A stretch of DNA of 64,000 nucleotides, taken from NCBI GenBank assembly GCA_040954595.2, contig CM082576.2, forward strand, positions 19,019,028-19,083,027, given 5' to 3'. The stretch is from Balanoglossus misakiensis. Lineage: Eukaryota; Animalia; Hemichordata. Of the stretch, positions 36,377-64,000 are shown piece after piece (the stretch's first letter is position 1; the number at the start of each line of letters is the position of its first letter). Both the position numbers and the translations under genes were made by a program. Below the pieces are notes generated by a model that searched no databases, had not been told where the DNA came from, and was given only the letters and a program-made list of their open reading frames with translations.

Positions 36377-39300
36377 TAAAATTGCTAATGTAAGGGTGAC
36401 ATTGAATCTGATTCTTTGCATTAGGGGAAATGGCGTAGCAAGCCTAATGATCCATCTGAGTAGATGGTGATGCAAGCTAAGCATTTTGACATAGGTACTA
36501 AATGTATATACATGGGTATTTAAAGTTGTCTGTAAATCCCCAGGTTAATACATGGCCATAAGCATTATAATTTGACATTGCTAATGAAATGGTGACACTG
36601 AATCTGATTCTTTGCATCAGGGCATATTGTGAAGCATGCTTGATGATGTATTAGGGTCAATAGTGATGGAAACACTGCACTATGACATGGGTATTTAATG
36701 CATACGCATTGATATTTACAGTTGACTCTAAATCCCGAGGTTAATACATGGCTAAAAGCGCTGTAATTTAAAATTACTAATGCAAAGGTTACATTGAATA
36801 TGGGTAAATGGTGAAGCAAGCTTGAAGATGCATCAGGGTAGCTGGTGTTTCAAGCCCTTCACATTGACATTGGAATATAATGCATATGGGGATTTAAAAT
36901 TGATTGTAAATCCCTAGGTTAATACATGGCCAAAAGCACTGTAATTTAAAATTGCTAGTGCAATGGTGACATTGAATGTGATTCTTTGCATCAGGGCATA
37001 TTGTGAAGCATGCTTGATGATGCATTAGGGTCAATAGTGATGGAAACACTGCACTATGACATGGGTATTTAATGCATACGCATTGATATTTACAGTTGAC
37101 TCTTAATCCCGAGGTTAATACATGGCTAAAAGCACTGTAATTTAAAATTACTAATGCAAAGGTTACATTGAATATGGGTAAATGGTGAAGCAAGCTTGAA
37201 GATGCATCAGGGTAGATGGTGTTTCAAGCCCTTCACATTGACATTGGAATATAATGCATATGGGGATTTAAAATTGATTGTAAATCCCTAGGTTAATACG
37301 TGGCCAAAAGCAATTTTATTTGACATTGCTAATGCAACGATGACATTGAATCCGATTCTTTGTATCAGGGTAAATGGCGATGCAAGCTTGATGATGCATC
37401 ACATAGATAGTGATGCAAACACTTCACTTTGACATGGGCATTAAATGCATATGGGGATTTCAAGTTGATTACAAATCCCTGGGTTAATACGCGTCCAAAA
37501 GCACTGTAATTTGACATTGCTAATGCGATGTTGACATTGAATGTAATTCTCCGCATTAGGGCAAATGGCAAAGCAAGCTTAATGATGCAATGGAGTAGAC
37601 GGTGATGCAAGCTATGCATTTTGACCTAGGTATTTAATGCATGTGCATGGGTATTTAATGTTGAATGTAAATTCCCAGGTTAATACATCTCCAAAAGCAC
37701 TGTAATTTAAAATTGCTAATGTAAGGGTGACATTGAATCTGATTCTTTGCATTATGGGAAATGGCGTAGCAAGCCTAATGATGCATCTGAGTAGATGGTG
37801 ATGCAAGCTAAGCATTTTGATATAGGTACTAAATGTATATACATGGGTATTTAAAGTTGTCTGTAAATCCCCAGGTTAATACTTGGCAAAAAGCAATTTT
37901 ATTTGACATTGCTAATGAAATGGTGACACTGAATCTGATTCTTTGCATCAGGGTAAATGGCGATGCAAGCTTGATGATGCATCCCGGTAGATAGTGATGC
38001 AAACACTTCACTGTGACATGGGTATTAAATGCATATGGGGATTAAAAGTTGACTGAAAATCCCTGGGTTAATACAAGTCCAAAAGCACTGAAATTTGACA
38101 TAGCTAATACAATGGTGACATTGAATGTGATTCTTTGCATTAGGGGAAATGGCGTAGCAAGCCTAATGATGCATCAGTGTAGATGGTGATCCAAGCTATG
38201 CTTTTTGACATAGGTATTTAATGCATGTGCATGGGTATTTAATGTTGACTGTAAATCCCTGGGTTAATACAAATCCAAAAGCACTGTAATTTGACATTGC
38301 TAATACAACGGTGTCATTTAATCTGATTCTTTGCATCAGGGCAAATTGCGAAGCAAGCTTAATGATGCATCGGAGTATATGGTGATGCAAGCTATGCACT
38401 TTGACATACGTATTTAATGCATATGCATTGGTATTTAATGTTGACTGTAAATCCCCAGGTTAATACATGGCCAAAAGCACTGTAATTTGACATTGCTAAT
38501 GCTACCGTGACACTAAATCTGATTCTTTGCATTAGGGTAAATTGTGAAGCAAGCTTGATGATGCATCAGGATAGATGGTGTTTTAAGCCCCTCACATTGA
38601 CATTGGAATATAACGCATATGGGGATTTAAAGTTAATTGTAAATACCCAGGTTAATACATGGCCAAAAGCACTGTAATTTAAAATTGCTAATGCAATGGT
38701 GACATTGAATGTGATTCTTTGCATTAGGGGAACTGGCGTAGCAATGCTAATAGTGCATCAGAGTAGATGGTGATGCAAGCTCTGCACTTTGACATAGGTA
38801 TTTAATGCATATGCATGCGTATTTAATGTTGACTATAAATCCTCAGGTGAATACATGGCCATAAACACTATAATTTGACATTGCTAATGAAATGGTGACA
38901 CTGAATCTGATTCTTTGCATCAGGGCATATTGTGAAGCATGCTTGATGATGCATTAGGGTCAATAGTGATGGAAACACTGCACTATGACATGGGTATTTA
39001 ATGCATACGCATTGATATTTACAGTTGACTCTAAATCCCGAGGTTTATACATGGCTAAAAGCGCTGTAATTTAAAATTACTAATGCAAAGGTTACATTGA
39101 ATATGGGTAAATGGTGAAGCAAGCTTGAAGATGCATCAGGGTAGCTGGTGTTTCAAGCCCTTCACATTGACATTGGAATATAATGCATATGGGGATTTAA
39201 AATTGATTGTAAATCCCTAGGTTAATACATGGCCAAAAGCACTGTAATTTAAAATTGCTATTGCAATGGTGACATTGAATGTGATTCTTTGCATCAGGGC

Positions 39301-41625
39301 ATATTGTGAAGCATGCTTGATGATGCATTAGGGTCAATAGTGATGGAAACACTGCACTATGACATGGGTATTTAATGCATACGCATTGATATTTACAGTT
39401 GACTCTTAATCCCGAGGTTAATACATGGCTAAAAGCACTGTAATTTAAAATTACTAATGCAAAGGTTACATTGAATATGGGTAAATGGTGAAGCAAGCTT
39501 GAAGATGCATCAGGGTAGATGGTGTTTCAAGCCCTTCACATTGACATTGGAATATAATGCATATGGGGATTTAAAATTGATTGTAAATCCCTAGGTTAAT
39601 ACGTGGCCAAAAGCAATTTTATTTGACATTGCTAATGCAACGATGACATTGAATCCGATTCTTTGAATCAGGGTAAATGGCGATGCAAGCTTGATGATGC
39701 ATCACGGTAGATAGTGATGCAAACACTTCACTTTGACATGGGCATTAAATGCATATGGGGATTTCAAGTTGTTTACAAATCCCTGGGTTAATACGCATCC
39801 AAAAGCACTGTAATTTGACATTGCTAATGCGATGTTAACATTGAATGTAATTCTCCGCATTAGGGCAAATGGCAAAGCAAGCTTAATGATTCAATGGAGT
39901 AGACGGTGATGCAAGCTATGCATTTTGACATAGGTATTTAATGCATGTGCATGGGTATTTAATGTTGAATGTAAATTCCCAGGTTAATACATCTCCAAAA
40001 GCACTGTAATTTAAAATTTCTAATGTAAGGGTGACATTGAATCTGATTCTTTGCATTATGGGAAATGGCCTAACAAGCCTAATGATCCATCTGAGTAGAT
40101 GGTGATGCAAGCTAAGCATTTTGACATAGGTACTAAATGTATATACATGGGTATTTAAAGTTGTCTGTAAATCCCCAGGTTAATACATGGCCATAAGCTC
40201 TATAATTTGACATTGCTAATGAAATGGTGACACTGAATCTGATTCTTTGCATCAGGGCATATTGTGAAGCATGCTTGATGATGTATTAGTGTCAACAGTG
40301 ATGGAAACACTGCACTATGACATGGGTATTTAATGCATATGCATTGATATTTACAGTTGACTCTAAATCCCGAGGTTAATACATGGCTAAAAGCGCTGTA
40401 ATTTAAAATTACTAATGCAAAGGTTACATTAAATATGGGTAAATGGTGAAGCAAGCTTGAAGATGCATCAGGGTAGATGGTGTTTCAAGCCCTTCACATT
40501 GACTTGGAATATAATGCATATGGGGATTTAAAATTGATTGTAAATCCCTAGGTTAATACGTGGCCAAAAGCAATTTTATTTGACATTGCTAATGCAACGA
40601 TGACATTGAATCCGATTCTTTGCATCAGGGTAAATGGCGATGCAAGCTTGATGATGCATCATGGTAGATAGTGATGCAAACACTTCACTTTGACATGGGC
40701 ATTAAATGCATATGGGGATTTCAAGTTGATTACAAATCCCTGGATTAATACGCGTCCAAAAGCACTGTAATTTGACATTGCTAATGCGATGTTGACATTG
40801 AATGTAATTCTCCGCATTAGGGCAAATGGCAAAGCAAGCTTAATGATGCAATGGAGTAGACGGTGATGCAAGCTATGCATTTTGACATAGGTATTTAATG
40901 CATGTGCTTGGGTATTTAATGTTGAATGTAAATTCCCAGGTTAATACATCTCCAAAAGCACTGTAATTTAAAATTGCTAATGTAAGGGTGACATTGAATC
41001 TGATTCTTTGCATTATGGGAAATGGCATAGCAAGCCTAATGATCCATCTGAGTAGATGGTGATGCAAGCTAAGCATTTTGATATAGGTACTAAATGTATA
41101 TACATGGGTATTTAAAGTTGTCTGTAAATCCCCAGGTTAATTCTTGGCAAAAAGCAATTTTATTTTACATTGCTAATGAAATGGTGACACTGAATCTGAT
41201 TCTTTGCATCAGGGTAAATGGCGATGCAAGCTTGATGATGCATCCCGGTAGATAGTGATGCAAACACTTCACTTTGACATGGGTATTAAATGCATATGGG
41301 GATTAAAAGTTGACTGAAAATCCCTGGGTTAATACAAGTCCAAAAGCACTGAAATTTGACATAGCTAATACAATGGTGACATTGAATGTGATTCTTTGCA
41401 TTAGGGGAAATGGCGTAGCAAGCCTAATGATGCATCAGTGTAGATGGTGATCCAAGCTCTGCGCTTTGGCATACGTATTTAATGCATGTGCATGGGTATT
41501 TAATGTTGAATGTAAATTCCCAGGTTAATATATGCATGGGTATTTAATGTTGACTGTAAATCCCTAGGTTAATACATGGCCATAAGTACTGTAAGGGGTA
41601 GATGGTGATGCAAGCTCTGCACTTT

Positions 41626-45721: not shown

Positions 45722-46254
45722 CACATGGGGATTAAATGCACATGCGTGTGTATTTAAAGTTAACTGTAAATCCCCAGGTTAATACGTGGCCAAAAGCACT
45801 GTAATTTGGCATTTCTAATGATGGTGAGATGTTGTTTGCTCCCCAGGGAGTTGAATGGAATATTTAGGTCCAACATCCTAGGTCAAATGACCATGGGACA
45901 ACTTAAAGCACGTTGAGATTTAATGTGCTACATAAGTTATAAATATTATAAAAATATTATTACATAAACAACACTCTTCCTTAGCAAAGGAAGTGGTCAG
46001 GTGAAATATATTCGCAGAGCTGACCAATTCTTTAAGGAAAATTAAAGTTGGGTAATTTGGATGTATTCATACGAGTGTTGGTCAATGATAGGAAAGTCCT
46101 TTGTTCATTTTCAAAATGAAAACCAAAAATGCGAACAAAACACACTGAATTACGTATGGGATATTGATGTTGCCTAATTTGTGTGACTCTACATTTACTT
46201 AAACTCTCACAGGGAGACAAATGTCACAGCAAACGGAAAAATGATTATGCTAAG

Positions 46255-47210
46255 CAATACGCCAACCTTTAAAATATTACTTTAGAAAGTTTGTATTCAT
46301 ACTTTCTTCAAGTTGTCATAACGCTACCCCGAAATGTGTTTAAGTATTGCCTTTGTATTAATGGGCTAGATTCATGGCGTTATATGTCATAAATTAAAAA
46401 GCCAACCCTTATTGATTTTGATAATATTTATGTCGGAGAATCCACAATGAAAATTATGTATTTCAATTTCATAACTCAAAATGATTTTCAAATCCATGAC
46501 CTTATTTTCAACTCCAGTGATCGTACATCCTGAACCTTGTGCCAGTAAATGATTGGCCATTACAGGGTTAATGGGCACTCTCCCGTTCTCTTCCTCCGCA
46601 GTTTCATTCATGTTCTTGTTTGACGGAAATGGGTGTGACCAGACGCTTGAATGTTTTCATGTGGGTGTCGTTGTTCATCGGGATCGGTCTCCTGGTGTGT
46701 CTGTACAGGTACGCAAGGAGAAACTGCCCACAAGAAGCTGCGAGTGAAACTATTTAAGGTAGTATGTGCCTCGCGGTCCGAGATTCAGACAAATGATAGT
46801 CCTCAAAACTTTTTCAAGTCTTTGATTTACTAAAGTGTATGGTGAGTCTCTTTGAAAACAACAAAAACATTACTCACCATATTGTTATTTTTTTGAAAGT
46901 TTAAAATGAAGTTGACAATGTACCAAACAGATTCTATTTATTTCTTCATGACCATGTTCACCCCAAGGTCATATGGACCTGCAAGTATATGCCAGAGCCA
47001 GAGTCGACATTACCGAAGCCAGAGTTCAAAGCTTGCAGGTCACCCCTTGCCAGCTCATGTCTAGCTAAACTGCCATGGATGCCAAGAGATATAGGACTAC
47101 AGTAACCTGTAGATGGTTTCAGTATGTTTGAAGAAAGTGGTGGCGCACTTTTGGCTACATTTGAAATGGCTATGGTACCAGTGGTTGAATTTGCAAAGGT
47201 GACCTTTGAC
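46255..47210 (+). repeat. Long direct repeat, copy 1 (copy 2 at 63045-64000, running off the window)
   Basis: Both start caatacgccaacctttaaaatattac and stay highly similar to the end of the window. Confidence 0.95.
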
Positions 47211-48423
47211 CTGGTATCATTAAAGATATTAAAGAACGATTGAACATTCCTTGTTGTCGTAAAATGACATCTGTAATAACTTATATTTTATCTGTTCATC
47301 TTGAAGTACTATATATTTAAACGCCAATTTTCCATTGCCAATCAATTTTTACAAATAAATTGTAATATGCATGTTGATTTTACAAAAACTCCTTACTTCA
47401 AAGTGAATTCTGTTACACATCACGTAAATATTTTCCCCACGAATTCTTCAGTTGCTGACTCGGAAATTTCATATATTGGGCAGAAATTGGATACATTACC
47501 GAGCCATTAAAATTACAGTTTTCTATTTTAATTGATCTTCCATAACTTCAAGTACTTTGATTTGACATAAATTAAAAACATCATGGTGAATAAATAAAAA
47601 ATCTTTGATTATCTAATTGTGCATGTTTACATGGTTTTATTTTAGTATGCTGGGTACTTAATGTCTAATTGCTCGCTGATTTTATACTGTTCAAGATGAC
47701 AATCTAATTTTAGTTTTCAGCTGATAATGGAAATTACTGATTAAAAAAATTGAATTTTGTCATGAATAAACTTGTTGTTCATGGCAGTTGCTGTATTTTG
47801 TTTCATGTGTATTCAATTTTTGCAAGAATACCATTGAGCACAGTTTGATTTGATTAAACACGTTTATCATTTGAAATATCTGTTTTTGCGCCCTCTACCA
47901 TTTGACCAAATGATTCTCTTATTTTGGTGGCCTTTGTCTGTGTATATGAGAATACTATAGTACTCTCGCATCGATGATAGTAGAAGTTGAAAACGTCTCT
48001 TGCCACGTGGCCTAGAAGAAAGGTGATCTTTAGAGTAAAATAAAACAAACTATCCAGATAGGAAGCTAGAAAAGAAGTTGAATCGTTGAAATTTTATTTA
48101 TTTTTATATTGTTAATATCGTTGGTGATGTTGACTGGCCGACAATCTTTGTCACACCAGTATTTGCAGGTAGATTAAAACATTGCCTATTCCAGCAATAA
48201 TCACAACAGTCTTACTTTTTCTATCTTTGTAAGCGTTAATCTTTATTGACCTCGCTTGTTGTTTTGTGTTTTTGTGTTGGTTTTGTTTTTGTTTTGTTTT
48301 TTTAGTAGTTTCATAATTTTATTTGTATTTTTAAAATGTTTTCCTGTTTTTTGTTTACTTTTTTATTTTTTTTACTATTTGTTGATTGTAATGCTGTATG
48401 GGTCTCGACTGTCGGTCCCAACT

Positions 48424-49726
48424 TGTCATATAACTAGGTAGTACTGGAGTCAGTGGAAACCCAGGTGCCCGCATAATTTCAGGTGTAGTGACACCGTGTA
48501 TTGTCATGTTAATGAATAGGGCTTCGTTAGCTAAGTTTCGTGTAGTAAGAGAGCACACTTCAATTTAGGTCTTGAAGGGAGCAACAAGTCGGGTCTCCCT
48601 GCTCAGTGAGTAGAAATACTAGGGGAAATACTAGTATTGCACCATACCTTGCTGTGTCCATGTAATGCTGTAGCGCGCATTAGTGCTCTCAGGACCACTG
48701 TTTCTGCAATTCGAGTGGAAGTAAATTCAGTACTTCTAGAAAGCAGAATTGTGCTTATTCAGTGCAAACCGGTGTGGTCGGGCGATTGGCGTGGCTGGCA
48801 TGGTCGTATGTGGTGTGGCTGGAAATTGCTCCAAGCAGAGTTCTGTGGAACCATCCTATAGACCCGGTATTGCTGAGCATGAAGTGTGGTGAAGAATTCT
48901 CGTGTAAGTAATGTATTTGTTTATTTATTTACTATAACTTAAATTTATATTTTATGGATATTTATGTCAAATTCGACAATTTGTAAGTAATAGGACGGTC
49001 ATAGTTAAAGCATAATTTTCCATGATATCACATGTAATCATGACGCTTTAACTAGTCCAAATTTCTGATAATTATTATTGAGAAACGTCAGTATTCATTT
49101 GTGAACAGTTGCTAAGGTGGACATTTCAGTCAATGTTTGTTGATTTTTCATTCAGCCATTTAACCCAAGACTTGCATCTAACAAGTCAGTCTTCAGTGTG
49201 TTTACTTGACTACTGGAGGACTACAAGTGGTAGAAAACATGGTGTATCACAGATTGTATGTGTAATGTGGATCGTCGCTACATCGTTCATCTATACAGGA
49301 CTCCATCCCATATTGTGGTTGAATCATGATTGTTTACTATGAATGTTATATACAGCTAAGTGACACTTACCATTGTTTAGACAATATGCAATAGACAATA
49401 AACTATAGTGATATTGTGAATATATTCATTTATGTAATATATTAAGTAACCCATTGTATTGTATGACCAATTGTATCAGCATACCTGTACCTGCTAAATT
49501 GGTTAGGACAGAGACATTTGATATTGTGCATATTGTGCACAAAAATTATATTCCTAGTATTATCTTTATATTATTTAATTGATTTAAATTAAATCAACTG
49601 TATTATTGTATCCGCACTGGTTTGTGTAGTTTCTCCCCATACCTTATCCACGGATGTTTACTCCTTGGCACTGAGAGCTGCTCAATATTTATCCTGGAAT
49701 CAGAGGGGTGCCCTCCACCTCTGACA
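48424..49726 (+). repeat. Putative 5' LTR of the Gypsy element (3' end firm, 5' end tentative)
   Basis: Ends TGACA two bases before the PBS; TGTCA at 48424 is a candidate inverted start; there is no second LTR in the window to confirm it. Confidence 0.55.
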
Positions 49727-49728
49727 TT

Positions 49729-49745
49729 TGGGGGCTCGTCCGGGA
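49729..49745 (+). promoter_or_regulatory. Primer-binding site, tRNA-Pro
   Basis: TGGGGGCTCGTCCGGGA, complementary to the 3' end of tRNA-Pro (as in the MLV PBS). Confidence 0.92.
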
Positions 49746-50027
49746 GTTTTATCGTTTTGTTGTGCATTTGTTTGTATACTATCATAAATTGTTGCCATAT
49801 AGTGGAGACCATGGTTTTGATAGGTAGAGATTCTGCAAATTGTGAAGACGGTGCTGGGTCTGTAGGCTGGTACTGTTACTGTATGTGCGCTTGTGGTTTC
49901 CTGCTATATAATATGGGCCGTGTTGGTTTGCGTCGTGCGTTTGGCTGTGTTGACTTGTGCTGAATGCCCTGTACTGCTAGGGGTTGTCAAACTGGGGGTT
50001 GTAAATCGCGATACAGCAAAGCATATA

Positions 50028-51837
50028 TGCAGAAAGAATATCTAAGATAGGGAGAAAATTTGGGTTGGAAGGGACTGCTTTAAAAGATTATGTTAGAGAG
50101 GAACAAATTAGACAGAGGGATCTTAGGGCTACTGAGAGAGAGGAGCAGAGAGAAGATAATAGGCGGCGCGAGGAACATGAGAGAGAGATACTGAAAATGC
50201 AAATTCACTTACAAGAATTAAAATTGAAAGGGGAAAATACAGAACAGCAGGTTACTGAAAATAATTTGGCCAAAGCGCGTGCTCCGAGACTACAGGGTTT
50301 ACGTGAGGATGTTGATGATATGGATGCGTACCTTCAACGTTTTCAGCGCTACGCCACTGCTCAGAAGTGGGAAAAAGATGACTGGGGGTGAATCTCAGTG
50401 CATATTGTTACAAGGTAAGGATGTATCCACATACAACCAAATGCCTGCAGCGTCTGCAAATAATTATGATGAATTGAAACCAGAGTTATTGAGGGCTTAC
50501 CAGTTAAGTGAGGAGAGTTTTCATGACAAGTTCCGTTCGTGTATGCCACATTATGATGAAAGTGCTCAAAAGTTTATGGACCGTATTGGTGACTATTTGG
50601 GCAGATGGGTAGAACTGGCTGGTACTCCAAAGACGTACAATGGGCTTACAGATCTTTTACTTCGAGAGCAGTTTATTGGAGTATGTTCCAGAGACATGGC
50701 AATGTTCATTAGAGAGCGACGGCCACAGAATGTCCAAGAGATGGTATCTACTGCCTCAAAATACTTAGATGCCCGAGGGTGGTGGAAACTGCCAAGTAAT
50801 GCCAAGAATAATCCAAGGAGCCAGCCGACAGCAAATACCAAGCCTGCTGTATATCCAAATCAAGTAAATAAGTTTAATAACAAAACCAATGGTTCCCATG
50901 TTTTTAAAGGTACGTGCTTCGTATGTGGTAAAGGTGGTCATATGGCCAAAGATTGTAGAAGTAAGCCAAAGATGCATAAGACGGCGGTATTGTTAACTGA
51001 AGAAGATAGAAACTATCCACCTAAACAAGAATGTACACATTGGGGCAACCGTCAACAGCCCAGGGGACTAGACACTGGTTATGCATGTATGGTGGTAGCA
51101 ATGGAAATAGATAAAACAGATGCAACACTGAATAAGGAGTTCGTGTTACCATGTGGTCATAAGCTCCCAGTGATGAGTGCTGCTTGTAGTGCCCATGGAG
51201 TGAAGAAGATGCCGGTAATGAAGGGATTGGTCGATGGTAAGCTGGTTAGCGTTTTGCGTGATAGTGGGTGTAGTAGTGTGGTAGTTCGAAGAAGTCTGGT
51301 GTCAAGTAATCAGCTGACTGGTGAGTACAGGACGTGTGTTCTGATAGATGGGACTATTAGAAGAGTACCTGTAGCCTCTATAAAAGTTGATACCCCTTAC
51401 TTTGTTGGTGATGTTACTGCACTGTGCATGATGAACCCTGTGTATGATTTAATACTGGGCAACATTGATGGTGTATCTGACCCTTCGAATCCTGATACTA
51501 CATGGCAGGAACCATTGCCGACATGTAGACTGTGTACAACTGTTGGACAGGTACCAGGTTTAGCAAATGCTATGGAGACCAGAGCCCAGAAGATAGCCAA
51601 CCAAAAACCAATCAGAGAGCTTAAAGTACCTAAAGCTGTTGGTGAAGTGGTGATGCCAGGGAAGCTTCAACAAGCTCAAGAAGAAGACTCCACTCTTGAC
51701 AAACTACGTGAGAAGGCAATTTTGGGTGACGAGAAAGTGACTAGGAATGGAGGTAGGTTGAAGTTCATCATGAAAGATGGGATCCTGTACAGAGAGTTCA
51801 ATTCGCCAATGGTCCAATTTGGTGAAAAGCTGTTACA
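50028..51837 (+). pseudogene. gag: Gag (coiled coil, SCAN-like capsid, CCHC knuckle) and aspartic protease; frameshifted
   Basis: LGLEGTALKDYVREEQ; DMDAYLQRFQRYA..W; LLLREQFI; CFVCGKGGHMAKDC; LRDSGCS; frameshifts near 50050 and 50390-50405. Confidence 0.9.
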
Positions 51838-51921
51838 CACTGCGGGAAATACTAGAGCTATGTTGGGCAGTATTCCGCGAAGCGCGAGCTCCCATGTTCA
51901 CCATAGCAACGCATTGCCAAG

Positions 51922-52572
51922 ATGGCGGCGCCCGTGTTGATCGATGCCGAGAAAGTTATAAAACGCAAATTGCGAGAGGCAAAATCTGTGCTTAAACGTA
52001 AAAAATGCGTGTCGGACAATCTGTATATACACCCACTCTTTGATGAACTTGAGGATGTGACAACAAGGGCCATATTTCGAAACGACAAGCTGTCAAAGGA
52101 CAAGATTCGTTGGCGTGACGTCGCCGTATTTCCCATGTTTCAGCGTGATATGACCTACTGGCAGAAGACCTTCTACGCTCGGCTGTCAACATCCCCGTCG
52201 TTAAGGTCACCATGGCAAAGCAGCTTTACACAACAAATGCCGAGGGAAGTATTTGATGTTTTTCATCAGTTTGCTACTCGGACCGGTTTTGGTATCGACT
52301 AGAAGACCTCCAGGGCTATCATAACCTTGACCTTCACAAGTTCCTCGAAGCTATTGTATGTGATACGGAAAGGTTATTGCTACGAGGGCGCTATCGGTCA
52401 GCATACAGAGAATATCCTAGAGAAGAAAGTCCGTGGAAAGAGGGTAGCTGTTATATGCACACCTGAGAAGCCCTGTGTTGTGAAATATTTTATCAACAGG
52501 GAGACTGTTGCTGTTAGATTCAGCTTTGGTGCCTGGAACAAACATGGAATTCCATTACATCCAGAGAACTGA
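51922..52572 (+). pseudogene. Transposon partner gene, ~216 codons with a single in-frame TAG (52300-52302); unknown family
   Basis: ORFs 51922 and 52327 share a frame (offset 405); start context caagATGgcg; AATAAA at 52701. Confidence 0.7.
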
Positions 52573-53424
52573 ACCCTATTGATTTTTCACACTGATTCAA
52601 CCCATCTGACGAACATTTTTTTCCTGATCTGTGGCACATGTTGTTCAGTGTAGATGTATCAGTCTGTCAAGACAGTCCTCTCACAATTGACATATATTCA
52701 AATAAAAAAAGGAAAATTAGAAGACTCAAAAATTCATCACTTGTCTTTATTTATCTACATTCAATACAAATGAACAGATAACGTTTACAAAATTTCCTAA
52801 ACTGTAAAATTCTTTTTTTCCATCATTATTGTAACATAGATTTTTCATTAGTTTCAGAAAAAAATGTATGTTACCTACAATCAACATTGATAAGTCAATC
52901 AAAACTGCTCATCTAACAGTTAACCAGGATTTCTGGTCTAAATTTAATTAATATTTACAATTAATTCCATGACAAAATTTATAAATATCAAGAATTTGAT
53001 GAGACTTAATTCTTTATTTTTTCACAAATTCATTAAAATTTCGTGCAGGTGCAGAATAAACAACTCCTCAAGAAAAATGTAAAACTTTTCTATCAAGCTT
53101 ATGTATGTCATACATTTTAATTTTGCAAAGCACTGCAATCACTATACGATTAAGGGTTTATTCACAATACTTAATAGTGGTAAGATAAGTTTCAATTTCC
53201 CTGTCCCCATACATGCACACATATACAAAATCCCATAAGAAACATATCATCTCCAGTTCAAAAAGTGTGAATTCATGTGATTTGTGATCTCCATTTTTAT
53301 TAAATGCAGCTCTCAACTACAGATGAGTCTTTATAATTCTGTAATGTAATTAATACCATAGTTATCCTTTAATTCTAAAGTAGCACACAGTGACACAATC
53401 CACTGTTTCAAATTCAATCATTGT

Positions 53425-55665
53425 TCACAGCATAAGTTTCTTGAGTTTATTTGATATTTTACCAGTGACAGCTGCTTTTTTTATGTCATCCATAATTGGG
53501 TCAACACATATTTCACAGGCAGTCATTGTTTCATTTTTCAAATTGCCACACATACAGTAGCCTGCATTCTCATAATATCGACTGGGAATGTATTTTTCTT
53601 TTTCTTTAAGCTCAAATTGACCTACATTTGCCCTTCTATAGTTGTCAGCTTTTGGACTTTTGTTCCTCAGCCAAAAAAGCATCACATATTCGTGTCGAAA
53701 TATGAGGGCCCACCTATTTTGAGGTGTAGAATTTTCACTGAATTCTAGCAGGCGTAGATGCTTTGCCTCTCTGCCTTCCATTGTGTTTAGGCCTAATCCC
53801 AGACTGAATTGCTTATAGATACTAGTGGTGTGTTTTGGGACTACATAACCAATGTGCCACACAGTATTATTGACATTCAGAAACAGGGAATGTAGATTAA
53901 AGTACCACCGACACTTATGCCTAAGTACAAGCAAATCTCCCTCATTTATGTTGAATCGTGAGAATAACAAAGTGATATCTCTAAGCAAGATACCAGTATA
54001 TGTGTAGAGAGCTAATTGAGCCCGACGCTTTGGACTGTCTGTATCGCTTCTCAATGCTAATACCAATCCCATGAAATGCCAAGCAAGTTTGCGAGACTCC
54101 TCACCAGTGAAGCGATAAACCACATTAATGTTGGCATTTGACTTGACACTATTTTCATTGAAGTATTTTACAATCTTATTATACAACTTTCCAGCTTTTA
54201 CTTGATATTTTAGGGCAGACAGGAATTTGTACAGATATGACTCGTTAGGTAGATTCTCAATTTTAACTCCATTTTCACGACCCTTTTCCGAAGTGTGGGC
54301 AACTGCGTCAATCAGTAATCGTTGGAAGTAGTATTGCCATGCATTGTTCTTTAAATGCAATGGCTCAGCCTTGGCACAATCAATAAATCTACCCAACGGT
54401 GGTACAAATTCCTGTCTTGACCTCAGACTGGCTATAAATTGTGTGATTTTGGGTCGCACTGTTTTGGGCTTTCCAGTTTTAATTTTCTTAGTTGACTTCA
54501 ACTTTTCAACAGCTTCTGCATCTTTAATTCTTTTCTGATATTTCCATTCATCCCACTTCTGACCTGGGCCAATTTCTGCTCCAATACAATCAATATCATT
54601 TTTGGAAACGTTAGCAAATGAGCTGAAATACTTTGCTGCATTGCTTAGTTCTCCAGACACACTGGCCAATCCCTTCTGATCAAAGGGTAAAAGTGACACC
54701 TGAAAAGTTACATCAAGACTGCCAACTTTATATTTACGTTTCTCAATACACTCAAGGTCTTTTGACAATGCAATTGCAAATTCAATCATTATGGGGTCAT
54801 CCTCTTTTATGTTTGCCCCTAATAGGAGAAAATTGTGGTCTGGGCTAGCAACACGGTGGGTCACATTCAAGAAACTAACTAGCCATGCAGTGGCCTGTCC
54901 ATGTTTGCCAAACGGAGCCCCGTCAGCACCTATACTGATTTGAAATGAGCCCTCCTGTTTACCGAACCAGTTAAGAATATCAGGCTGTGTTTCCCCCACA
55001 TTTAAATATAAACTGGCAATCTTAATAAGCAACTCCTCAGGGTTTCTTTTTAAGCCGACTTGTTTGCCTTCAGATGATATAATTGGCTCAAGATTTCCAA
55101 TGTCAAGGTTACTTACATACTGTACAACTTTTGTGTATGGGAGCAGTCTTGGTATTCTACAGCCAGAATGAATTTCTAATGCTTTCCTAGGATGTTTCAA
55201 GTTGGAGAACATCTGAAGTTCACTCTGCCTCAGACAGTTATATTTTCGTTTGGATAGTACTCCGCCCTCATACATAGTTCTGACACTCCTCACCAAATTG
55301 TTCTCACTTTTCTCAAATTTACTGATGTATTTATCAAATACTGATGGCATTACTTTTTTACTGATTTGGGGAGAGGTTCTGAAGTATGTTTTCATTTGGT
55401 CAGGAGTGGCAGAATTAACAAGAGTATACCACAAACCATCAAGTGCTGCTTTTGGTGGATGTAGTACATTCGGTTTATTTATACCTTTGGCTGGGCTTAC
55501 ATCTGTAGTTGCTACATGAATATTTATGGCTGCTGATAAGGTTTCACACCTACGTTCATACTGTTGACGTCGCGACAGCTTCAAAGATTCACTATTATCT
55601 GCACATACTTCAGTATTCTTGTGGACCCATTTAGAGCGTTTCACATTAACATCATCAACAGGAAT
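53425..55665 (-). CDS. Main exon (746 codons) of the DDE transposase, RAG1-core-like
   Basis: Acceptor tttcag|ATT, phase 0. Motifs GADGAP (D241), FDQK (D322), EPLH, RFTGEESRKL, MEGREAKH (E626), numbered on the 739-aa ORF, parallel RAG1 CDG, YDEK, DALH, RMNGNFARKL, SEGNESGN; C-terminal CxC..CxxC. Confidence 0.85.
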   Translation of the reverse strand: MPVDDVNVKRSKWVHKNTEVCADNSESLKLSRRQQYERRCETLSAAINIHVATTDVSPAKGINKPNVLHPPKAALDGLWYTLVNSATPDQMKTYFRTSPQISKKVMPSVFDKYISKFEKSENNLVRSVRTMYEGGVLSKRKYNCLRQSELQMFSNLKHPRKALEIHSGCRIPRLLPYTKVVQYVSNLDIGNLEPIISSEGKQVGLKRNPEELLIKIASLYLNVGETQPDILNWFGKQEGSFQISIGADGAPFGKHGQATAWLVSFLNVTHRVASPDHNFLLLGANIKEDDPIMIEFAIALSKDLECIEKRKYKVGSLDVTFQVSLLPFDQKGLASVSGELSNAAKYFSSFANVSKNDIDCIGAEIGPGQKWDEWKYQKRIKDAEAVEKLKSTKKIKTGKPKTVRPKITQFIASLRSRQEFVPPLGRFIDCAKAEPLHLKNNAWQYYFQRLLIDAVAHTSEKGRENGVKIENLPNESYLYKFLSALKYQVKAGKLYNKIVKYFNENSVKSNANINVVYRFTGEESRKLAWHFMGLVLALRSDTDSPKRRAQLALYTYTGILLRDITLLFSRFNINEGDLLVLRHKCRWYFNLHSLFLNVNNTVWHIGYVVPKHTTSIYKQFSLGLGLNTMEGREAKHLRLLEFSENSTPQNRWALIFRHEYVMLFWLRNKSPKADNYRRANVGQFELKEKEKYIPSRYYENAGYCMCGNLKNETMTACEICVDPIMDDIKKAAVTGKISNKLKKLML

Positions 55666-56018
55666 CTGAAAGATTAAGTGTGTGATAAATATATACTAAT
55701 TAGAATATAATCATTATATATAAAATAAAATCTTCTTACAAGTTAATCATTAATTTAAATGTCCTTGATAAGAAATACACACGTGTAGCCTGTATTTTTC
55801 TGACAACTTCTGCAATAAAAATCCTAAAAAATATATATAGTTTGTTGGAAAACCTAGATGTTTTGCATCAAAGCTGAACCCATTTTGTTATCATTGTTTA
55901 CACAGGATCATGTGACATGAAGTTCAAAAAGCGAATTTGGGCTAAAATTTGAAGAGGATTTATACAAATCTGAGATTTTTAAAATTATGACTAAGTCTAT
56001 TTATCTGATCTAGCTTAC

Positions 56019-56462
56019 CTTTCTCTTATTATTCTTTGTAGCTAAGATCTCACAAATCTTACTGTTCTTCTTCTCTAGTCTAGCTAGCTGGGTTGAGGAT
56101 CTTTTTACTAGTCTCCTAGCTGCACTCAACTTATTCAACTTATCCTGAATTATGCTTTCTTCCTCATCTCTCTTTCTCTTTCTCTGTCTACACCACTCTC
56201 CTAAGTTAAACCTGTGTTTAGTCTGTCCTCTCTTTGTTCTAACTACCAATAGGTTGTTGGCCACGCTCCCAGACAAAGATCTAGTCTTCAATTTCTCCTG
56301 ATATAGTTGTTGCAAACACTTCTCTTCAGCTACCTGTCTCGCTATCTTTTGGTCCTTTGCCCACTGGCCTATGTTGAAGTAACTTTTCCCTTTTCTATTC
56401 GGCATAACAATAGACAAACTTTTAAGAAGTGCGCTACTCCTGTTGAATAGTTTGCCCCACAT
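56019..56462 (-). CDS. Upstream coding exon of the transposase (basic, helical N-terminus); start ATG at 56462 or 56405
   Basis: Acceptor ccttttcag| at 56479/56478; donor AAG|gtaagc at 56019/56018 is phase 0 and joins 55665 in frame; a likely further 5' exon ends at 56615 (|gtaagg). Confidence 0.75.
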
Positions 56463-57313
56463 GGCTCTAAATCTATACCTGAAAAGGGTGAACAAGAGAA
56501 ATATCTTTACAATAATTATCTATCCGAGGGAAGCAAAAACAAAACACCTGCTCATTATACTTCCTCCAGAAATTGAGGTCAAAGGTGACATAGAAAGAAT
56601 GTGGGTAACCTTACCATAACAATCTCGCCCGTTCATTTTTTTCTTATTTCGTTTTCACCCTCGAATTTCCAGCGAATTATATCAAGAATATATTTTAGCA
56701 CAAACTATTGGTTTCTGATTTTTCAGTTACGGTCTTATTTTCTGTCAATTCTATGAACAATATCACCATGTCGCTGAAAATTCGAAGCGCCGCCATTACA
56801 ATCAATGTAACCCGTGCTGCTGCCAAGGAACACACAGGGTCGTATATTTTCGCTTGGTATGATTTCGTCATATTGCTTGTAGCAGCATTTTAAACATGGA
56901 ATCCTATGTTTACGTATAAAAGACTAAATTCGTATGGTTTTCAAATTGAAAAAAAAACAATTCTGTGAAGCTGAATCGTTGTAATTTTTAGTGTTTGTTT
57001 ATGGTTGCTTAGGACGGCTTCTGCTATAGCAACGGCCAGGGACTGTCAGCGGGTGATCAAAATGTTCAAGTTATTTGGCTGATACACATAAATAACACAG
57101 CAGAATCGCAACTTTATTTCATATTGTCTCTGACATCTTGCTAATTTTACTAAACAAAACTTGGAATAAAGCAATATTACTCACCGAATTATGCTGTGCA
57201 TCGACAGCTGTGTTCGATCGCGAACGCCATTACTGTGTCTAATTAAATATTCATGAGCTTCATAGGCTGCCACGGAAATACTGCCCATAGGTGGCGTCGT
57301 TCAAGCTGTAGTG

Positions 57314-59325
57314 ACAGGTGGTGGTTCCCAGAGTGTATCGTAACCAGGTGATGAGACTAGCCCATGAATCAGTGCTGGGTGGTCACCACGGAACTCACAA
57401 GACCACAGACAAGATCCTCAGCAACTTCGTTTGGCCTGGGCTAACATCAGATGTTTCCCGTTACTGTCAGTCCTGTGATTCATGTCAACGGACACAACCA
57501 AAGGGACGGGTGACCAAGGTACCACTTGGAAGTATGCCACTAATAGATATCCCTTTCCTACGTATTGCAGTAGACCTGGTTGGCCCTATTCATCCATGCA
57601 CTGAACGCAAGAATAGGTACATACTTACTGTTGTTGATTATGCAACACGCTATCCGGAGGCTGTTGCATTGACTAACATTGATACCAAGACTGTTGCAGA
57701 GGCGCTCCTGGACATCTACTCAAGAGTGGGGTGTCCACGTGAAATTCTGACAGATCAAGGAACTCAATTTACATCAGATGTGATGCGTGAGGTCAGCCGG
57801 CTTTTGTCTATAAAGCAGAAGACTACCACCCCATACCACCCAGCATTCAATGGTCTAGTGGAACGGTTCAATGGTACATTGAAACTCATGCTCAGGAAGA
57901 TGTGTGAGGAACGTCCAACATATTGGGATCGTTATCTGAATGCTTTACTATTTGCCTACAGAGAAACGCCTCAATCGAGCACAGGATTCTCTCCGTTTGA
58001 GTTACTTTATGGGAGGAGTGTGCGTGGTCCAATGGCTATCTTGAAAGAACTATGGACTGGAGAGATCAGTGAACCAGAAACCAAAACGACTTATCAATAC
58101 ATCCTTGATCTTCAAAAGAAATTAAAGAAGGCATGCGATTTAGCAAGACAAGAACTGAAGATATCACAAGGCAAATACAAGTCCTACTACAATAGAAAGG
58201 CCAAATGGAGGAAGTACAACAAAGGTGACGAGGTGTTATTGCTACTACCTACTGACCATAATAAACTACTTATGCACTGGAAGGGTCCTTTTCCAGTGGT
58301 GGAGAAAGCGAGCAATATGGATTACAAGATTGACTTTGGTCATAGGGTGAAAACATTCCATGCCAACCTGTTGAAGAGGTACTATCGAAGAACTGATCAG
58401 CTAGATGAAGTATCAGCTGGACTTCTTGAGATTGTGTGTGTATCTGTGATAGATGAGCAGAGTTATGAATCTTCAGAAGTACAAGAGAACACAGGGGTTA
58501 AAGTAAACGATGACTTACTGCGGGTTCCTGCATTCAAGCAGAAAGAATTTGCTGCAGATGTGAATGTATGTGACAACTTGTCAGACATACAGGAGCAAGT
58601 GGTGAGGAGGTTGCTGATCAATTACAAAGATATGTTAACTGATATTCGTGGTAACACCAACCTGGGTTTCCATGACATCAAGTTGATGGATCCAACACCA
58701 GTATGCAGTAGGCCATACCCCATCCCTCATGCACTCCGTGAAGCAGTGAAAGATGAAGTCAAAACGATGATTAAGATGGGAGTAGCTGAACCTTCAGAGA
58801 GTCCATATGCTGTTCCACTGGTAATGGTGAAGAAATCTGATGGGTCCAATCGTTGTTGTGTTGACATGAGAAAGCTCAATCGCATAACAGTGTTTGATGC
58901 AGAGCCTACACCAGACCTGAGTGAGCTTTTTGCTTTTTGCTAAGTTATCCAAGGATCACTATTTCACTAAAGTAGATCTCAGCAAAGAATATTGGCAAGT
59001 CCCGTTGACTGATAATTCTAAACAATTGACGGCATTTATCACGCATGATGGGCTATACCAATTTATCAAAATGCCTTTCGGACTTGTAAATAGTGCTGCG
59101 ACTTTTAGCAGAATTATGAGAAGATTGTTAAGAGATATGAAGAACGTAGACAACTATATCGATCACATACTGATCCACACTGCATCATGGGAAGAACATA
59201 TCAAGACAATTACAGATTTGATGAGCAGACTACGAAAGGCAAAGTTAACAGCGAGACCAACTAAGTGTTATGTGGGTTATGAGCAGATCGATTTCCTGGG
59301 TCATGTGGTTGGTCATGGTGAACTA
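57314..59325 (+). pseudogene. pol: Pol: integrase followed by reverse transcriptase (frameshifted, truncated)
   Basis: HHCC zinc finger (LAHE..GHHG..CDSC), VDLVGP, TDQGTQF, LVERFN, WKGPF; RT motifs VDMRKLN, VDLSKEYWQV, MPFGL, YIDH (mutated YIDD), FLGH; frameshift near 58930. Confidence 0.93.
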
Positions 59326-59690
59326 GTCCTGTTTCAAAATGACCTACATTACAGGTCCTATGCACACGTATTACATGTTCTGATTGGTTTATCCACTTCT
59401 CTAAGGTCCACTTGCGGCTCGCTGATTGGAGGGACCTTATGTGTTAGGTCTTATTACTATGTATTATTCACCAGACCTTGTAGGTTAGGTCTTATTACAA
59501 TGCATTATTCACTTTACAGCTCCCTGATTGGTTAATGTGTAGGTCTGGTCCTCCAGTGTTCACTGCCTCATTATGCAGGACCTTGTAGGTTAGGTCTTAT
59601 TAATATGTATTTATTCACCATACAGCTCCCTGATTGGTTAACGTGTCAGTCTGGTCCCCCCCAGTGTTCACTGCCTCATTGTGAAATGTC
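59324..59690 (+). repeat. Unrelated sequence with ~105-bp tandem repeats that truncates RT
   Basis: gaccttgtaggttaggtcttatta..acagctccctgattggttaa..ccagtgttcactgcctcatt occurs twice, with partial copies upstream. Confidence 0.7.
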
Positions 59691-60667
59691 CCATGTGCTT
59701 CCTGGCTAGCGTTGTGGTAACATATTATTCGGGGTGTACGCAGATCGTTCATTGATTTTCTGAGAAATAGCCTAACTGATACTATCTCCAACATAAACCG
59801 CACCCTGGAAAGATTAAATGATCTTTTAGGTGGACTTTGAAAATCTGATTAACTCATCTAAGCATTTTAGCTAAGTTGTATATTTTTTAATTATAATCAT
59901 ACAAAATACTTAAAAAATAAAAACAATGTTCAGTTTTAATACCCACTGATGAGGGGAAACATCAGTTTCAAATTCTTTTCATGGGAGCGCTTGAGCAGAG
60001 TTATGAGTTTTGCTCTGTGAAAGAAAATGGGGGGATTTCAAAATTTTGGCAGTTCGGAAGGGGGATTTCAAAATATTTCGGGTTGTGAAAGGGGGGGGGG
60101 CATGTGAAAATTAGCGGTAAAAGATGAATCCCCCCCCCCTCCAGAGGAGTTTGTGAATGCAGCCTAAGAAAGAAAAAATGTGAAATGGGTCAAATATGGG
60201 CCGGACGTGCCCATTCAACTCAATTTACTTTTGTTTGCTTTAAGTAGGAATTGATCACAGCTATATTTATTTTGGACACCTGAGCGACAAGAAAACAATC
60301 TGATTCTACATTTTAAAAAGCGTCATTGGAAAAGCACTGCAATTTTGTTTCTTGCTTTAAAAAAGTTTGGGGTGGCATGTAATAATTAAGGTGTGTCTAA
60401 ATTACTAATTTGGTGCACCTCAAAGCCCTTAGCCAATGTAAATTATATCCTGCATTGTATTCATGAAGGATATCCTCCCGCGAGGTCAATGCCATTCAAT
60501 GTCAAACAGTCTCAACAAAGACCATTGGACACTCATAGCCGTTTTGTATGAAAGTGACTGGAGTACGAGATGAGTTTCATGACAACAACAAATCATGCTC
60601 AGTCTCGCTGCAGGGTCTATAATTTCAATAACGGCTAGACGCTGGACACTATCTTAGGTAACACTTT

Positions 60668-60723
60668 AGGGTCATAGTGCTGGAACGACATGTTTAAACA
60701 GGTCGTTCCGGCACTCTGACCCT
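60668..60723. repeat. 56-bp spacerless palindrome
   Basis: agggtcatagtgctggaacgacatgttt|aaacaggtcgttccggcactctgaccct, 25 of 28 positions pair. Confidence 0.85.
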
Positions 60724-61217
60724 TTCGGCCCCAGTCGTTTCAGCCCCCATTTTCCACGACCCAAGTCGTTACAGCCCGGACAGTAACACCCCAAACATTT
60801 CAACACTTATCAGGGAAGACCTTAGCCCAACTATTAAAACTTGGCTTGAACCTACTTAAGTTCTCCGCATGAAATATGAGCGAGCGTTGTCAGAGGACGA
60901 CAGCTACGCACACTTTGGGCGTGACCGAATCAAACAGAATTGAATATTCTATATTCGGAAAAAACACCTTATCTCCGTTTTGCCGTTGACAAACCGATTT
61001 CTGTCATGACAGTTACTCCCGGGGACTGTGACAGACCATATACAGACAGTAGAGGCCGCGCGCTGGGGGTCTACACAAGTCACTACAGCTGATGTAAGCA
61101 AGTGCAACATGCTTTGCTTGCAGGAATGTTCCATTTTCAATAGAGGGGTGTGTATATTCAGAGGGAATGTCAGTCGGGGCCCTGGCTGGCAACATGCGGC
61201 GTATATATTGACAATCT

Positions 61218-62145
61218 TAGCCGGGAGACCAGGGCGTCGATCTAAAATACAACGCTCGGGGACAGTCGAGCAAGTCCTGCTGAGCTGAAAGATAGTAGTC
61301 TTGGCAACGATCGAGGTCGCTTAGTAACAAATGGATAACGAGTGATCTATCAAATGTTGACGGGCGCCAGTGGTTGGATGATATAATTAAAGGCACGTAA
61401 GCTGTAACTGGATAAAAAATTAAAGTTTTAAATAATCTCATATATGCTTTTAATTATGTCTATTAAATGCTATTTCATGATAATATATCAAGCTCAACAC
61501 TTATTTATGACAAAATGGCCAAAAATTAAAGAAAAACGAAAATTCCTGCAATTTTAAAAAAAGCGCTATATTGCAATGAAAAATGAAAATCTGATGTCTC
61601 AGTGGTGTACATTTACTTCCATGAGCTCAAGTGGATGAGATCATGTTTTGTTTATGAAGTTTCACAACCGGAAATGCAACATTTTCATTGTTTCTTGCAT
61701 TTTCCCACGGTGGCGGCCATAATCGCTTGCGGCAAAGCTTTATTATTTATCTGGTTAAAACTTGCATATGCACTCATACTTAGGGTTTATAATGCTTGTG
61801 TATTGTTCACTACCTTCATCTGTATGGACTAATGGTAGTGCAGTTTGAAACAAAAATTATGAAAATTATCCCAAAAGTTACACCTTACGTGCCTTTAACA
61901 AAGCTTGGTTATGAATATTCATACACCTTCAAAACCACTCCCACATCCCATCGCGGGAATTTCACACATGACTCCACCTCTATTTCCTTATTTAGATGGC
62001 GACGATGTCATGTGGTTAACATTGAGTGACCAATTAGCTTACACGCAAGATTTACCACACGTGTCGTTCTACGAACAGAATTCTGTTCGTAAATAGAGAC
62101 TGTCCCCGGGCGTTTCTTTTCCCCGACGCCCTGGTCTCCAGGCTA
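61218..62145. mobile_element. Non-autonomous TIR element with a 9-bp TSD
   Basis: TSD tgacaatct at 61209-17 and 62146-54; TIRs tagccgggagaccagggcgtcg / cgacgccctggtctccaggcta. Confidence 0.9.
61391..61894. mobile_element. Nested Kolobok-like MITE (TTAA TSD)
   Basis: ttaa|aggcacgtaagctgtaact ... agttacaccttacgtgcct|ttaa. Confidence 0.88.
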
Positions 62146-62457
62146 TGACAATCTCGCTGATAGGCGCAGCTGGAATTTATGTTTCTGTGGTATGATTATT
62201 GTATTTTATCAATGCACAATCACGATGGGCGAGTTTCAAGCAAGCAATTGGATTCGCTTCAATCCCTCACTAAAATCTAGACTGCACCACTGTATAATAA
62301 CACAATACAGTCTTCTAGCCTCATGGTATAAACAGGAACTCTTGTCTGCTGGACATCCGGGTACTTTGGTCTACTGAGTGAACGCGTTACGTATAGAGGT
62401 AGCGCAAAGTGAAAACCTATTTAAGGCAGCCACAACAATCAGTGTTGACGTACATAC

Positions 62458-62560
62458 AATCTGACTAAAATCGCAGTTGGTATGACGACAGCATACTAAT
62501 AATACTGTACCACATAAGTAAAAGACGTCGTCGTACCATACATCTGATTTTATTCAGATT
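62458..62560. repeat. Short hairpin element, copy 1
   Basis: aatctgactaaaatc..ggtatgacgac / gtcgtcgtacc..gattttattcagatt. Confidence 0.7.
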
Positions 62561-62576
62561 ACTGCATATTTGCATA

Positions 62577-62787
62577 TACTGTGAAACAAGTTATTTTCGC
62601 GAGCAATACATTTTCGCGAGATACGTGAGAGCCAAAATGGTATGAAAATAAGAGGTCGCATAATTATTTTTGAAGATAACGATGCAGTGAATGAAATAAG
62701 AGAACGCGAAAATTAATACTCGCGAAACAGTAGCCTCTCTCGATATCGTGAAAATTTCAACTCGCTAAAATAAAGTGTTTTACAGTA
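62577..62787. mobile_element. Small MITE (TACTGT..ACAGTA ends, internal tcgcga/cgcgaa repeats)
   Basis: tactgtgaaacaagttattttcgcgag ... ctcgctaaaataaagtgttttacagta. Confidence 0.75.
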
Positions 62788-62821
62788 GTTTATGTATGTA
62801 AAGTGTTCCTGATGTTAACAC

Positions 62822-62930
62822 AATCTGATTAAAATCAGATGTAGGCCTAGGGAATGGCGACGTAGTTTTTTGATGCTGCGACAGCATAAAAAACACGTCG
62901 CCGTTCCCTACATCTGATTTTAATCAGATT
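62822..62930. repeat. Short hairpin element, copy 2
   Basis: aatctgattaaaatcagatgtagg..gggaatggcgacgt / acgtcgccgttccctacatctgattttaatcagatt. Confidence 0.8.
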
Positions 62931-63044
62931 AGCGTTAACATAACTTTATCAGAATAAGTTAACGCCATAACTTTGACAGAATAAGAGTTGCCTCAAACGG
63001 CTCTAACCGAATTTCCATTAATAGCAGAACAAACAAGCTGTAAT

Positions 63045-64000
63045 CAATACGCCAACCTTTAAAATATTACTTTAGAAAGTTTGTATTCATACTTTCTTCA
63101 AGTTGTCATAACGCTAACCCGAAATGTGTTTTAGTATTGCCTTTGTATTAATGGGCTAGATTCATGGCGTTATATGTCATAAATTAAAAAGACAACCCTT
63201 ATTGTTTTTGATAATATTTATGTCGGAGAATCCACAATGAAAAATATGTATTTTCAATTTCATAACTCAAAATAATTTCCAAATCCATGACCTTATTTTC
63301 AACTCCAGTGATCGTACATCCTGAACCTTGTTCCAGTAAATGATTGGTCATTACAGGGTTAATGGGCACTCTCCCGTTCTCTTCCTCCGCAGTTTCATTC
63401 ATGTTCTTGTTTGACGGAAATGGGTGTGACCAGACGATTGAATGTTTTCATGTGGGTTGAGTTGTTCATCGGGAACGGCCTCCTGGTGTGTCTGTACAGG
63501 TACGCAAGGAGAAACTGCCCACAAGAAGCTGCGAGTGAAACTATTTAAGGTAGTATGTGCCTCGCGGTCCGAGATTCAGACAAATGATAGTCCTCAAAAC
63601 TTTTTCAAGTAATTGATTTACTAAAGTGTGTGGTGAGTCTCTTTGAAAACAACAACAATATTACTCATCATATTGTAATTTTTTGAAACTATAAAATGAA
63701 GTTGACAATGCACCAAACAGATTCTATTTATTTCTTCATGACCATGTTCACCCCAAGGTCATATGGACCTGCAAGTATATGCCAGAGCCAGAGACGACAT
63801 TACCGAAGCCAGAGTTTAAAGCTTACAGGTCACCCCTTGCCAGCTCATGACTAACTAAACTGCCATGGATGCCAAGAGATATATGACTACGGTAACCTGT
63901 AGATGGTTTCAGTATGTTTGAAGAAAGTGGTGGCGCACTTTTGGCTACATTTGAAATGGCTATGGTACCAGTGGTTGAATTTGCAAAGGTGACCTTTGAC
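63045..64000 (+). repeat. Long direct repeat, copy 2 of 46255-47210+
   Basis: Paralogous ORFs 46387/63199; colinear to the window end. Confidence 0.95.

Follow-up and report, generated by a model that had tools for sequence, protein, structure and literature searches.

In RAG1, the C(2)C and H-H motifs bind zinc. Both motifs are common to RAG1 and to the whole CMCT clade, according to the available part of Kojima (2025, PMC12730594). Most Transib families carry RSS23-like termini at both ends and a few are of the 12/23 type (PMC1131882, in excerpt); symmetric spacers of 20–22 bp are given for Transib in the accessible text of PMC8355894, and symmetric and asymmetric spacers both occur in Transib subgroup II (Tao et al. 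2022, PMC9435367). Duplications of 3 bp, associated with G-starting ends, have been reported for Transib in the portion available of bioRxiv 2026.08.26.747230, duplication length being labile. Among RAGL elements, 5-bp duplications are the rule in the sections of PMC7204232 used here, and the ends of BbeRAGL are called almost symmetrical in an excerpt of bioRxiv 2023.08.20.553239. The inner block and the spacer length of ProtoRAG both count for efficient and precise cleavage (PMC8289069, in part). Chapaev3 elements have CAC ends and a TWA duplication, as described in the accessible part of PMC4079192.

The window analyzed here is a stretch of 64,000 nucleotides from the hemichordate Balanoglossus misakiensis. 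It contains one copy of a two-gene, cut-and-paste DNA transposon of 5476 bp, located between confirmed CAC...GTG ends at 51838 and 57313 and inserted in a Gypsy element. The features of the transposon and of its surroundings are as follows.

50228..51837, plus strand: gag-protease part of the host Gypsy, interrupted by the transposon and not part of it
51835..51837, plus strand: left copy of the target site duplication, ACA
51838..57313, no strand assigned: whole DNA transposon, 5476 bp, with CAC...GTG ends
51838..51845, plus strand: left terminal box CACTGCGG, on the ORF2 side, likely the cleavage motif
51846..51863, plus strand: left spacer, 18 nt, with 4/18 bases equal to the right spacer
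51864..51874, plus strand: left inner box TGGGCAGTATT, end positions 27–37, likely the binding motif
51922..52572, plus strand: ORF2, 216 codons, single exon, facing the transposase; E 3e-32 with the profile of its relatives
53425..55665, minus strand: main exon of the transposase, with NBD-like helices, DDE core and C-terminal CxCG...CxxC
55666..56018, minus strand: predicted GT-AG intron, 353 nt
56019..56405, minus strand: predicted first coding exon, carrying a coiled coil and two copies of an F-x-[IL]-G motif
57277..57287, minus strand: right inner box TGGGCAGTATT, end positions 27–37
57288..57305, minus strand: right spacer, 18 nt
57306..57313, minus strand: right terminal box CACTACAG, on the transposase 5' side
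57314..57316, plus strand: right copy of the target site duplication, ACA
57315..59535, plus strand: integrase and then reverse-transcriptase-like frames of the host Gypsy, not part of the transposon

Elsewhere in the window, large tandem satellites of 116 bp and about 196 bp are found at 14098-22661 and 27534-41534.

Read from 51838, the left end consists of CACTGCGG, 18 nt and TGGGCAGTATT, followed by CCGCG; inward from 57313, the right end consists of CACTACAG, 18 nt and TGGGCAGTATT, followed by TCCGTG. The two ends are identical at 6/8 of positions 1–8, at 4/18 of positions 9–26 and at 11/11 of positions 27–37, and they are bipartite with an inner motif starting at position 27 on both sides, as the original prediction had it. 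An exact in-register inverted run of at least 11 nt was obtained in only 7 of 300,000 random pairs drawn from the window. The 11-mer of the inner box has two sites in the window, with no third even when one mismatch is allowed. Since shuffled sequences give 1.7 matches, a count of two is not above chance, and the evidence for the inner boxes lies in their common register, not in their number. The pair of ends was outside the 25 longest of the 96 inverted repeats, in agreement with the expectation that such ends are easily missed by TIR finders. The right junction is unaltered in contigs from two runs of one sample, from which the window itself may derive. For the right end, three runs of one sample gave no contig with another flank, which says nothing on its absence. 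Both window ends are devoid of the A/T tract at positions 23–26, which bears part of the family signal. The split-end feature is real and under selection.

ACA is present on both flanks and represents a 3-bp duplication; duplications of 4–6 bp do not fit, and the frames of the host gene on either side of the insertion fit a duplication of three bases. The host Gypsy encodes SCAN, zinc knuckle, protease and integrase domains. In the region 46251-64000 of the window, its gag domain is SCAN-like and its integrase lies ahead of the reverse transcriptase, which is the order of Gmr1-like elements. Direct repeats, 96.4% identical over at least 961 bp, surround this Gypsy, and their 3' copy starts at TG; they are likely its LTRs. 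If so, the transposon is younger than the divergence of these LTRs, and 14 differences among 18 spacer positions, beside 11/11 positions kept, cannot have arisen in place. A spacer that had merely decayed, the case that the original prediction had set against itself, is unlikely, as the likely LTRs of the host are 96% identical and the transposase frame is open.

Target duplications were searched for in relatives at 14 loci with both ends, plus the element L081. We found a 3-bp duplication at 6/14 loci and for L081 (7/15), compared with 25/826 cross-locus pairs by chance, and duplications of 4–8 bp at none of the 14 loci. At some of the eight loci without a 3-bp duplication, copies agree in one flank and not in the other; from these shared flanks, the eight misses likely correspond to flanks of different copies joined in short-read assembly. 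The duplications are not confined to TWA: they comprise ACA, TAG, AGC, GAT, ATT, and AAT, and TWA was observed in 1/8 (TTA).

Apart from L081, these relatives come from the best 80 of 242 loci identified by a scan of metagenome contigs, which probably represent DNA of the host animals. An exact search with the 11-mer of the window found no end among them. Their ends, of the type CACGCYGGG, were set by drops in homology between copies, and a matrix restricted to positions 1–11 picked 59 of them. Six were dropped, one without a CAC-like start and five judged internal or doubtful. After removal of redundancy, the remaining 53 and the two ends of the window left 35 ends, which we ourselves grouped into 22 families. 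Without gaps, conservation is high at positions 1–9, low at 12–22, rises again at 23–26 (the A/T tract) and 29–33 (GGC[CA]A), and reaches background past 37. A leave-family-out matrix of positions 23–36 scored best at offset 0 in 25/35 ends when 37 offsets were considered, and within one base in 27/35; with 21 offsets, 26/35 ends were at offset 0. Both window ends are best at offset 0, and 10/35 ends are not. The control blocks 37–50, 45–58, and 55–68 were at offset 0 in 6, 3, and 2 of the 35 ends, respectively. Taking one end per family, 18/22 fall within one base, the families being related and the trials therefore not independent. The held-out ends of L081 gave offsets 0 and −1, and in most element pairs the inner block lies at offset 0 or ±1 at both ends. 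The conservation of spacer length, for which an alignment of related families had been suggested, is supported by these ends.

The spacer sequence is not wholly free, since block 11–22 keeps its register in 13/35 ends. In 12 pairs of ends belonging to the same element, identity is 0.95 at positions 1–10, 0.68 at 11–16, 0.46 at 17–22, 0.54 at 23–26, 0.68 at 27–33, and 0.26 at 38–60; between families it is 31% at 11–16 and 30% at 17–22. Three of the 12 pairs are near-continuous TIRs. The claim of a nonconserved spacer stands for the window element (4/18) and does not extend to the family in general, where spacers are 68% alike at 11–16 and 46% alike at 17–22 within the 12 pairs. The window element is an extreme case of a family tendency to unlike spacers. 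One relative, from a sample matching the window, carries CACTACGG at the same register together with a third spacer, which by eye is 7/18 and 3/18 alike with those of the window.

Several relatives show particular organizations. A related contig of 1123 bp, about 80% alike, covers 51863-51976 and 52523-52570; it keeps the terminal register but has a different spacer, and 546 nt of the ORF2 region are skipped. A 5099-bp contig of the same sample aligns with a small part of the transposase, so that there are further relatives in this host. The spacer of the 3' end of L018 (6941) is 8 nt shorter than that of L016 and this end has a matching TAG duplication, so that either the bases were deleted once the element had inserted or a short spacer is tolerated. 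In L009-L014 (e.g., L010 4274), an extra inner copy of the 3'-type end lies near the 5' end; in L010, the outer end is degenerate and the TTA duplication goes with this inner end instead. The element L081 (3325-11866) is a complete relative embedded in a tandem satellite of 294 bp, and its contig belongs to a bacterial MAG. It was the only contig with a relative in the prokaryote genomes searched, and we consider it likely animal DNA mis-binned in the MAG, with no claim to a bacterial origin. Viral contigs contained no relative of the transposase. We also considered the A-tract at 23–26 as the nonamer of an RSS12, and it performed no better than shuffled motifs (407/2000).

The minus-strand transposase frame is 756 codons long and, with the predicted upstream exon, gives an open spliced model of 875 aa. 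Among 7995 candidates scored, 249 relatives were retained at E 0.001. The top one is a protein of Ptychodera flava (74%), and all others with a name, among the 120 listed, come from cnidarians. With a profile of the transposase, 709 clusters, of which many are fragments, scored E 1e-30 or better. Pfam searches and PDB searches by sequence and by profile did not place the transposase, and there was no sequence-level match to Transib or RAG1 in PDB. The structural model (pLDDT 88.8) retrieved RAG1 first with Foldseek (E 2.5e-13) and HzTransib next (1e-7), with no others below E 1 among the matches listed. VIA-align superposed it on residues 459-1005 of RAG1 with a Z of 22.6 and an rmsd of 4.2 over 470 aligned residues; the scores were 20.2 for HzTransib, 19.8 for BbRAG1L, and 11.1 for the P element. 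Identity in the structural alignment with RAG-type proteins is about 10%. In the Atlas, its own clusters are hypothetical cnidarian proteins and the closest well-named clusters are RAG1 (0.95). Most structural rows begin only near model residue ~126; in the NBD region, two of them reach model residues 29/36 against RAG1 395, loosely, with rmsd 7.0–8.6. The transposase is predicted to adopt a RAG1/Transib-type fold, an RNase H core with an insertion domain. The link with RSS and RAG put forward in the original prediction agrees with the match of this model to RAG1, and the RSS-like logic is likely right.

Residues D258, D339, and E643 (counted from 55695) are invariant in 95/95 sequences and are conserved in 94/95, 109/111, and 68/72 more distant proteins, respectively; by the order of the motifs, they would correspond to the RAG1 triad. 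H447 of the LH motif is also invariant in the 95 sequences. The place of C(2)C is taken by Y-F-S-x-F-A, and the H-H region has a single invariant histidine. None of 108 more distant relatives of the transposase has CxxC after the second D. Judging from these sequences, the zinc site of the RAG1-type insertion domain appears to have been lost in the lineage. The C-terminal CxCG...CxxC motif is conserved among relatives.

The second gene, ORF2, has an in-frame stop at 52300-52302 in the window; the contigs of both runs carry G at 52300 and have no stop. Its profile was built from 16 relatives. In all 28 loci with a 3' end found, a convergent ORF2 of ~210 aa occupies the interval from the transposase to that end, and the ORF2 and transposase trees are largely congruent (Mantel 0.66, 0/5000 permutations). 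PF26709 is annotated on all 42 protein database matches of the ORF2 of one relative, which served as query in place of the window ORF2. A basic stretch containing W, R, and P is conserved among ORF2 proteins. A 208-aa relative is modeled as an N-terminal helical hairpin and an alpha/beta domain (pLDDT 86.7). Searches of PDB and BFVD with the whole model gave nothing at E 0.001; the best VIA match (Z 7.3) involves the N-terminal hairpin only, and the best Atlas score is 0.76. A six-bladed kelch propeller was rejected, the model being alpha/beta and the protein too short (the RAG2 core has 350 aa). By analogy, ORF2 is likely an accessory subunit of another fold, in the place where RAG2 sits in RAG transposons. 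The ORF2 start usually falls within a motif A-x-ATGGC[GT] (51917-51929 in the window, and at the 3' ends of relatives), and the reverse complement of this motif resembles ProtoRAG TR5. The motif also resembles a YY1 site.

We propose that the transposase reads each end twice in a RAG-like manner, a reading to which we assign a probability of about 0.7. By comparison with RAG and Transib, a transposase dimer would pair both ends. The catalytic core would cut at CAC and the N-terminal helical domain, nonamer-binding-like, would hold the inner box, with the arm between them setting the length of the spacer and not its sequence. Strand transfer with a three-base stagger would then generate the 3-bp duplication. 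As the model matches RAG1 and Transib, the inner box is likely read by the nonamer-binding-like domain, and no tilt of the 12/23 type would be needed, since the spacers are equal.

In Harbinger or CACTA elements, the ends are bound by a second protein that recruits the transposase. ORF2 might similarly bind the inner box and recruit the transposase in place of its N-terminal domain. It is found in 28/28 loci, is coinherited with the transposase and contains the conserved basic stretch described above; in addition, L075, L066, and L028, whose ORF2 are nearest to that of the window, have GGCCA-type inner boxes near its TGGGCA. However, the transposase carries its own predicted NBD-like helices, which makes this division of labor improbable. 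The ORF2 model matches no known DNA-binding fold, a result that neither supports nor excludes such a role.

The prospect that the inner box is instead a promoter or the site of a host factor is slim. Both genes run inward from the ends, a convergent arrangement requires promoters on the two sides, and ORF2 starts just 85 nt inside the left end; nevertheless, the box is fixed relative to the terminus, yet the start motif of ORF2 lies 76–130 nt from the end. As to a host factor, some inner boxes read GCCATTT, which resembles a YY1 site, but CCAT is absent from many boxes. That the ends are ordinary continuous TIRs of ~37 bp with a decayed or drifted middle and no two-site reading is very unlikely: 3/12 relative pairs are near-continuous and positions 11–16 are 68% alike within elements, yet in the window 14/18 spacer bases differ beside 11/11 kept, in spite of likely host LTRs 96.4% alike and an open transposase frame, and the dip in conservation and its second peak are also seen between families.

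This transposon shares several features with Transib (Kapitonov and Jurka 2005, PMC1131882, in its available text). These are a predicted RAG1-type fold, CAC ends and a heptamer followed by a variable spacer and then a second block, all within ~38 bp and in most cases the same at the two ends. Symmetry had been presented as a novelty of the locus; this does not hold, as most Transib families are symmetric in the accessible parts of PMC1131882, PMC8355894, and PMC9435367. Unlike Transib, the element generates a 3-bp duplication and not one of 5 bp, has its strongest inner conservation at GGC (29–31) and not in an A-rich nonamer at 31–39, lacks the C(2)C motif and carries a constant second gene. 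Like RAGL and ProtoRAG, it has RAG1 as best structural match of its transposase, two convergent genes between CAC ends, and ends that are bipartite, with an inner block rich in GC. At position 30, the block of the family is similar to ProtoRAG TR5 GCCATCTTG (mean 4.3/9, reached by 27/2000 shuffles), a lead obtained with one of three motifs tried. Unlike RAGL and ProtoRAG, its second gene encodes ~210 aa predicted as alpha/beta and not kelch, its duplication is of 3 bp and not 5 bp, and its spacers are equal; spacers of RAG and RSS are of the 12/23 or 27/31 type. CAC...GTG ends, a 3-bp duplication and a conserved LH motif (H447) are shared with Chapaev3 and EnSpm/CACTA of the CMCT clade, and the CA..TG termini with a 2–5-bp duplication that characterize this clade are present. 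The loss of C(2)C and H(3-4)H and the duplications beyond TWA set it apart from Chapaev3 and CMCT as far as their described motifs go. A plain CACTA/EnSpm or Chapaev3 element, as the ends and the duplication alone would suggest, was rejected, as the defining protein motifs fail. The element works like RAG and Transib, without the defining features of Transib (5 bp), RAGL (RAG2, 5 bp), Chapaev3 or CMCT (motifs).

Split ends of equal length are already known from Transib; the lineage itself looks undescribed. It is marked by 3-bp duplications (7/15 relatives), the absence of C(2)C (0/108) and a constant non-kelch gene (28/28). No published description of it was found in the papers searched; Repbase and subscription journals were outside this scope, and a prior name is quite possible. 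None of its motifs was found in the paper supplements, which were covered in part. We suggest tentatively, with rather less than even confidence, that these elements form an undescribed and widespread sister lineage of RAG1/Transib in cnidarians and hemichordates, possibly a superfamily of its own, which may have lost the zinc site, uses a three-base stagger and would have independently recruited an obligate non-RAG2 subunit to a convergent position.

By themselves, the split ends are of modest interest, and their value lies in the lineage that they mark. It is an active question how RAG1 evolved the recognition of split signals and its dependence on RAG2. If the suggestion is true, the lineage would represent a second natural experiment in which a RAG1-type enzyme gained a partner and reads split signals of equal length. 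Some of its copies look intact (e.g., L075), and they combine split ends of equal length with a partner gene of another kind. These would allow one to ask how spacer length is fixed without a 12/23 rule, whether the zinc site of a RAG1-type enzyme is dispensable, what determines a 3-base or a 5-base stagger, and whether a partner was recruited twice. In addition, many animal proteins labeled "uncharacterized" (709 clusters) and the Pfam family PF26709 thereby receive an identity.
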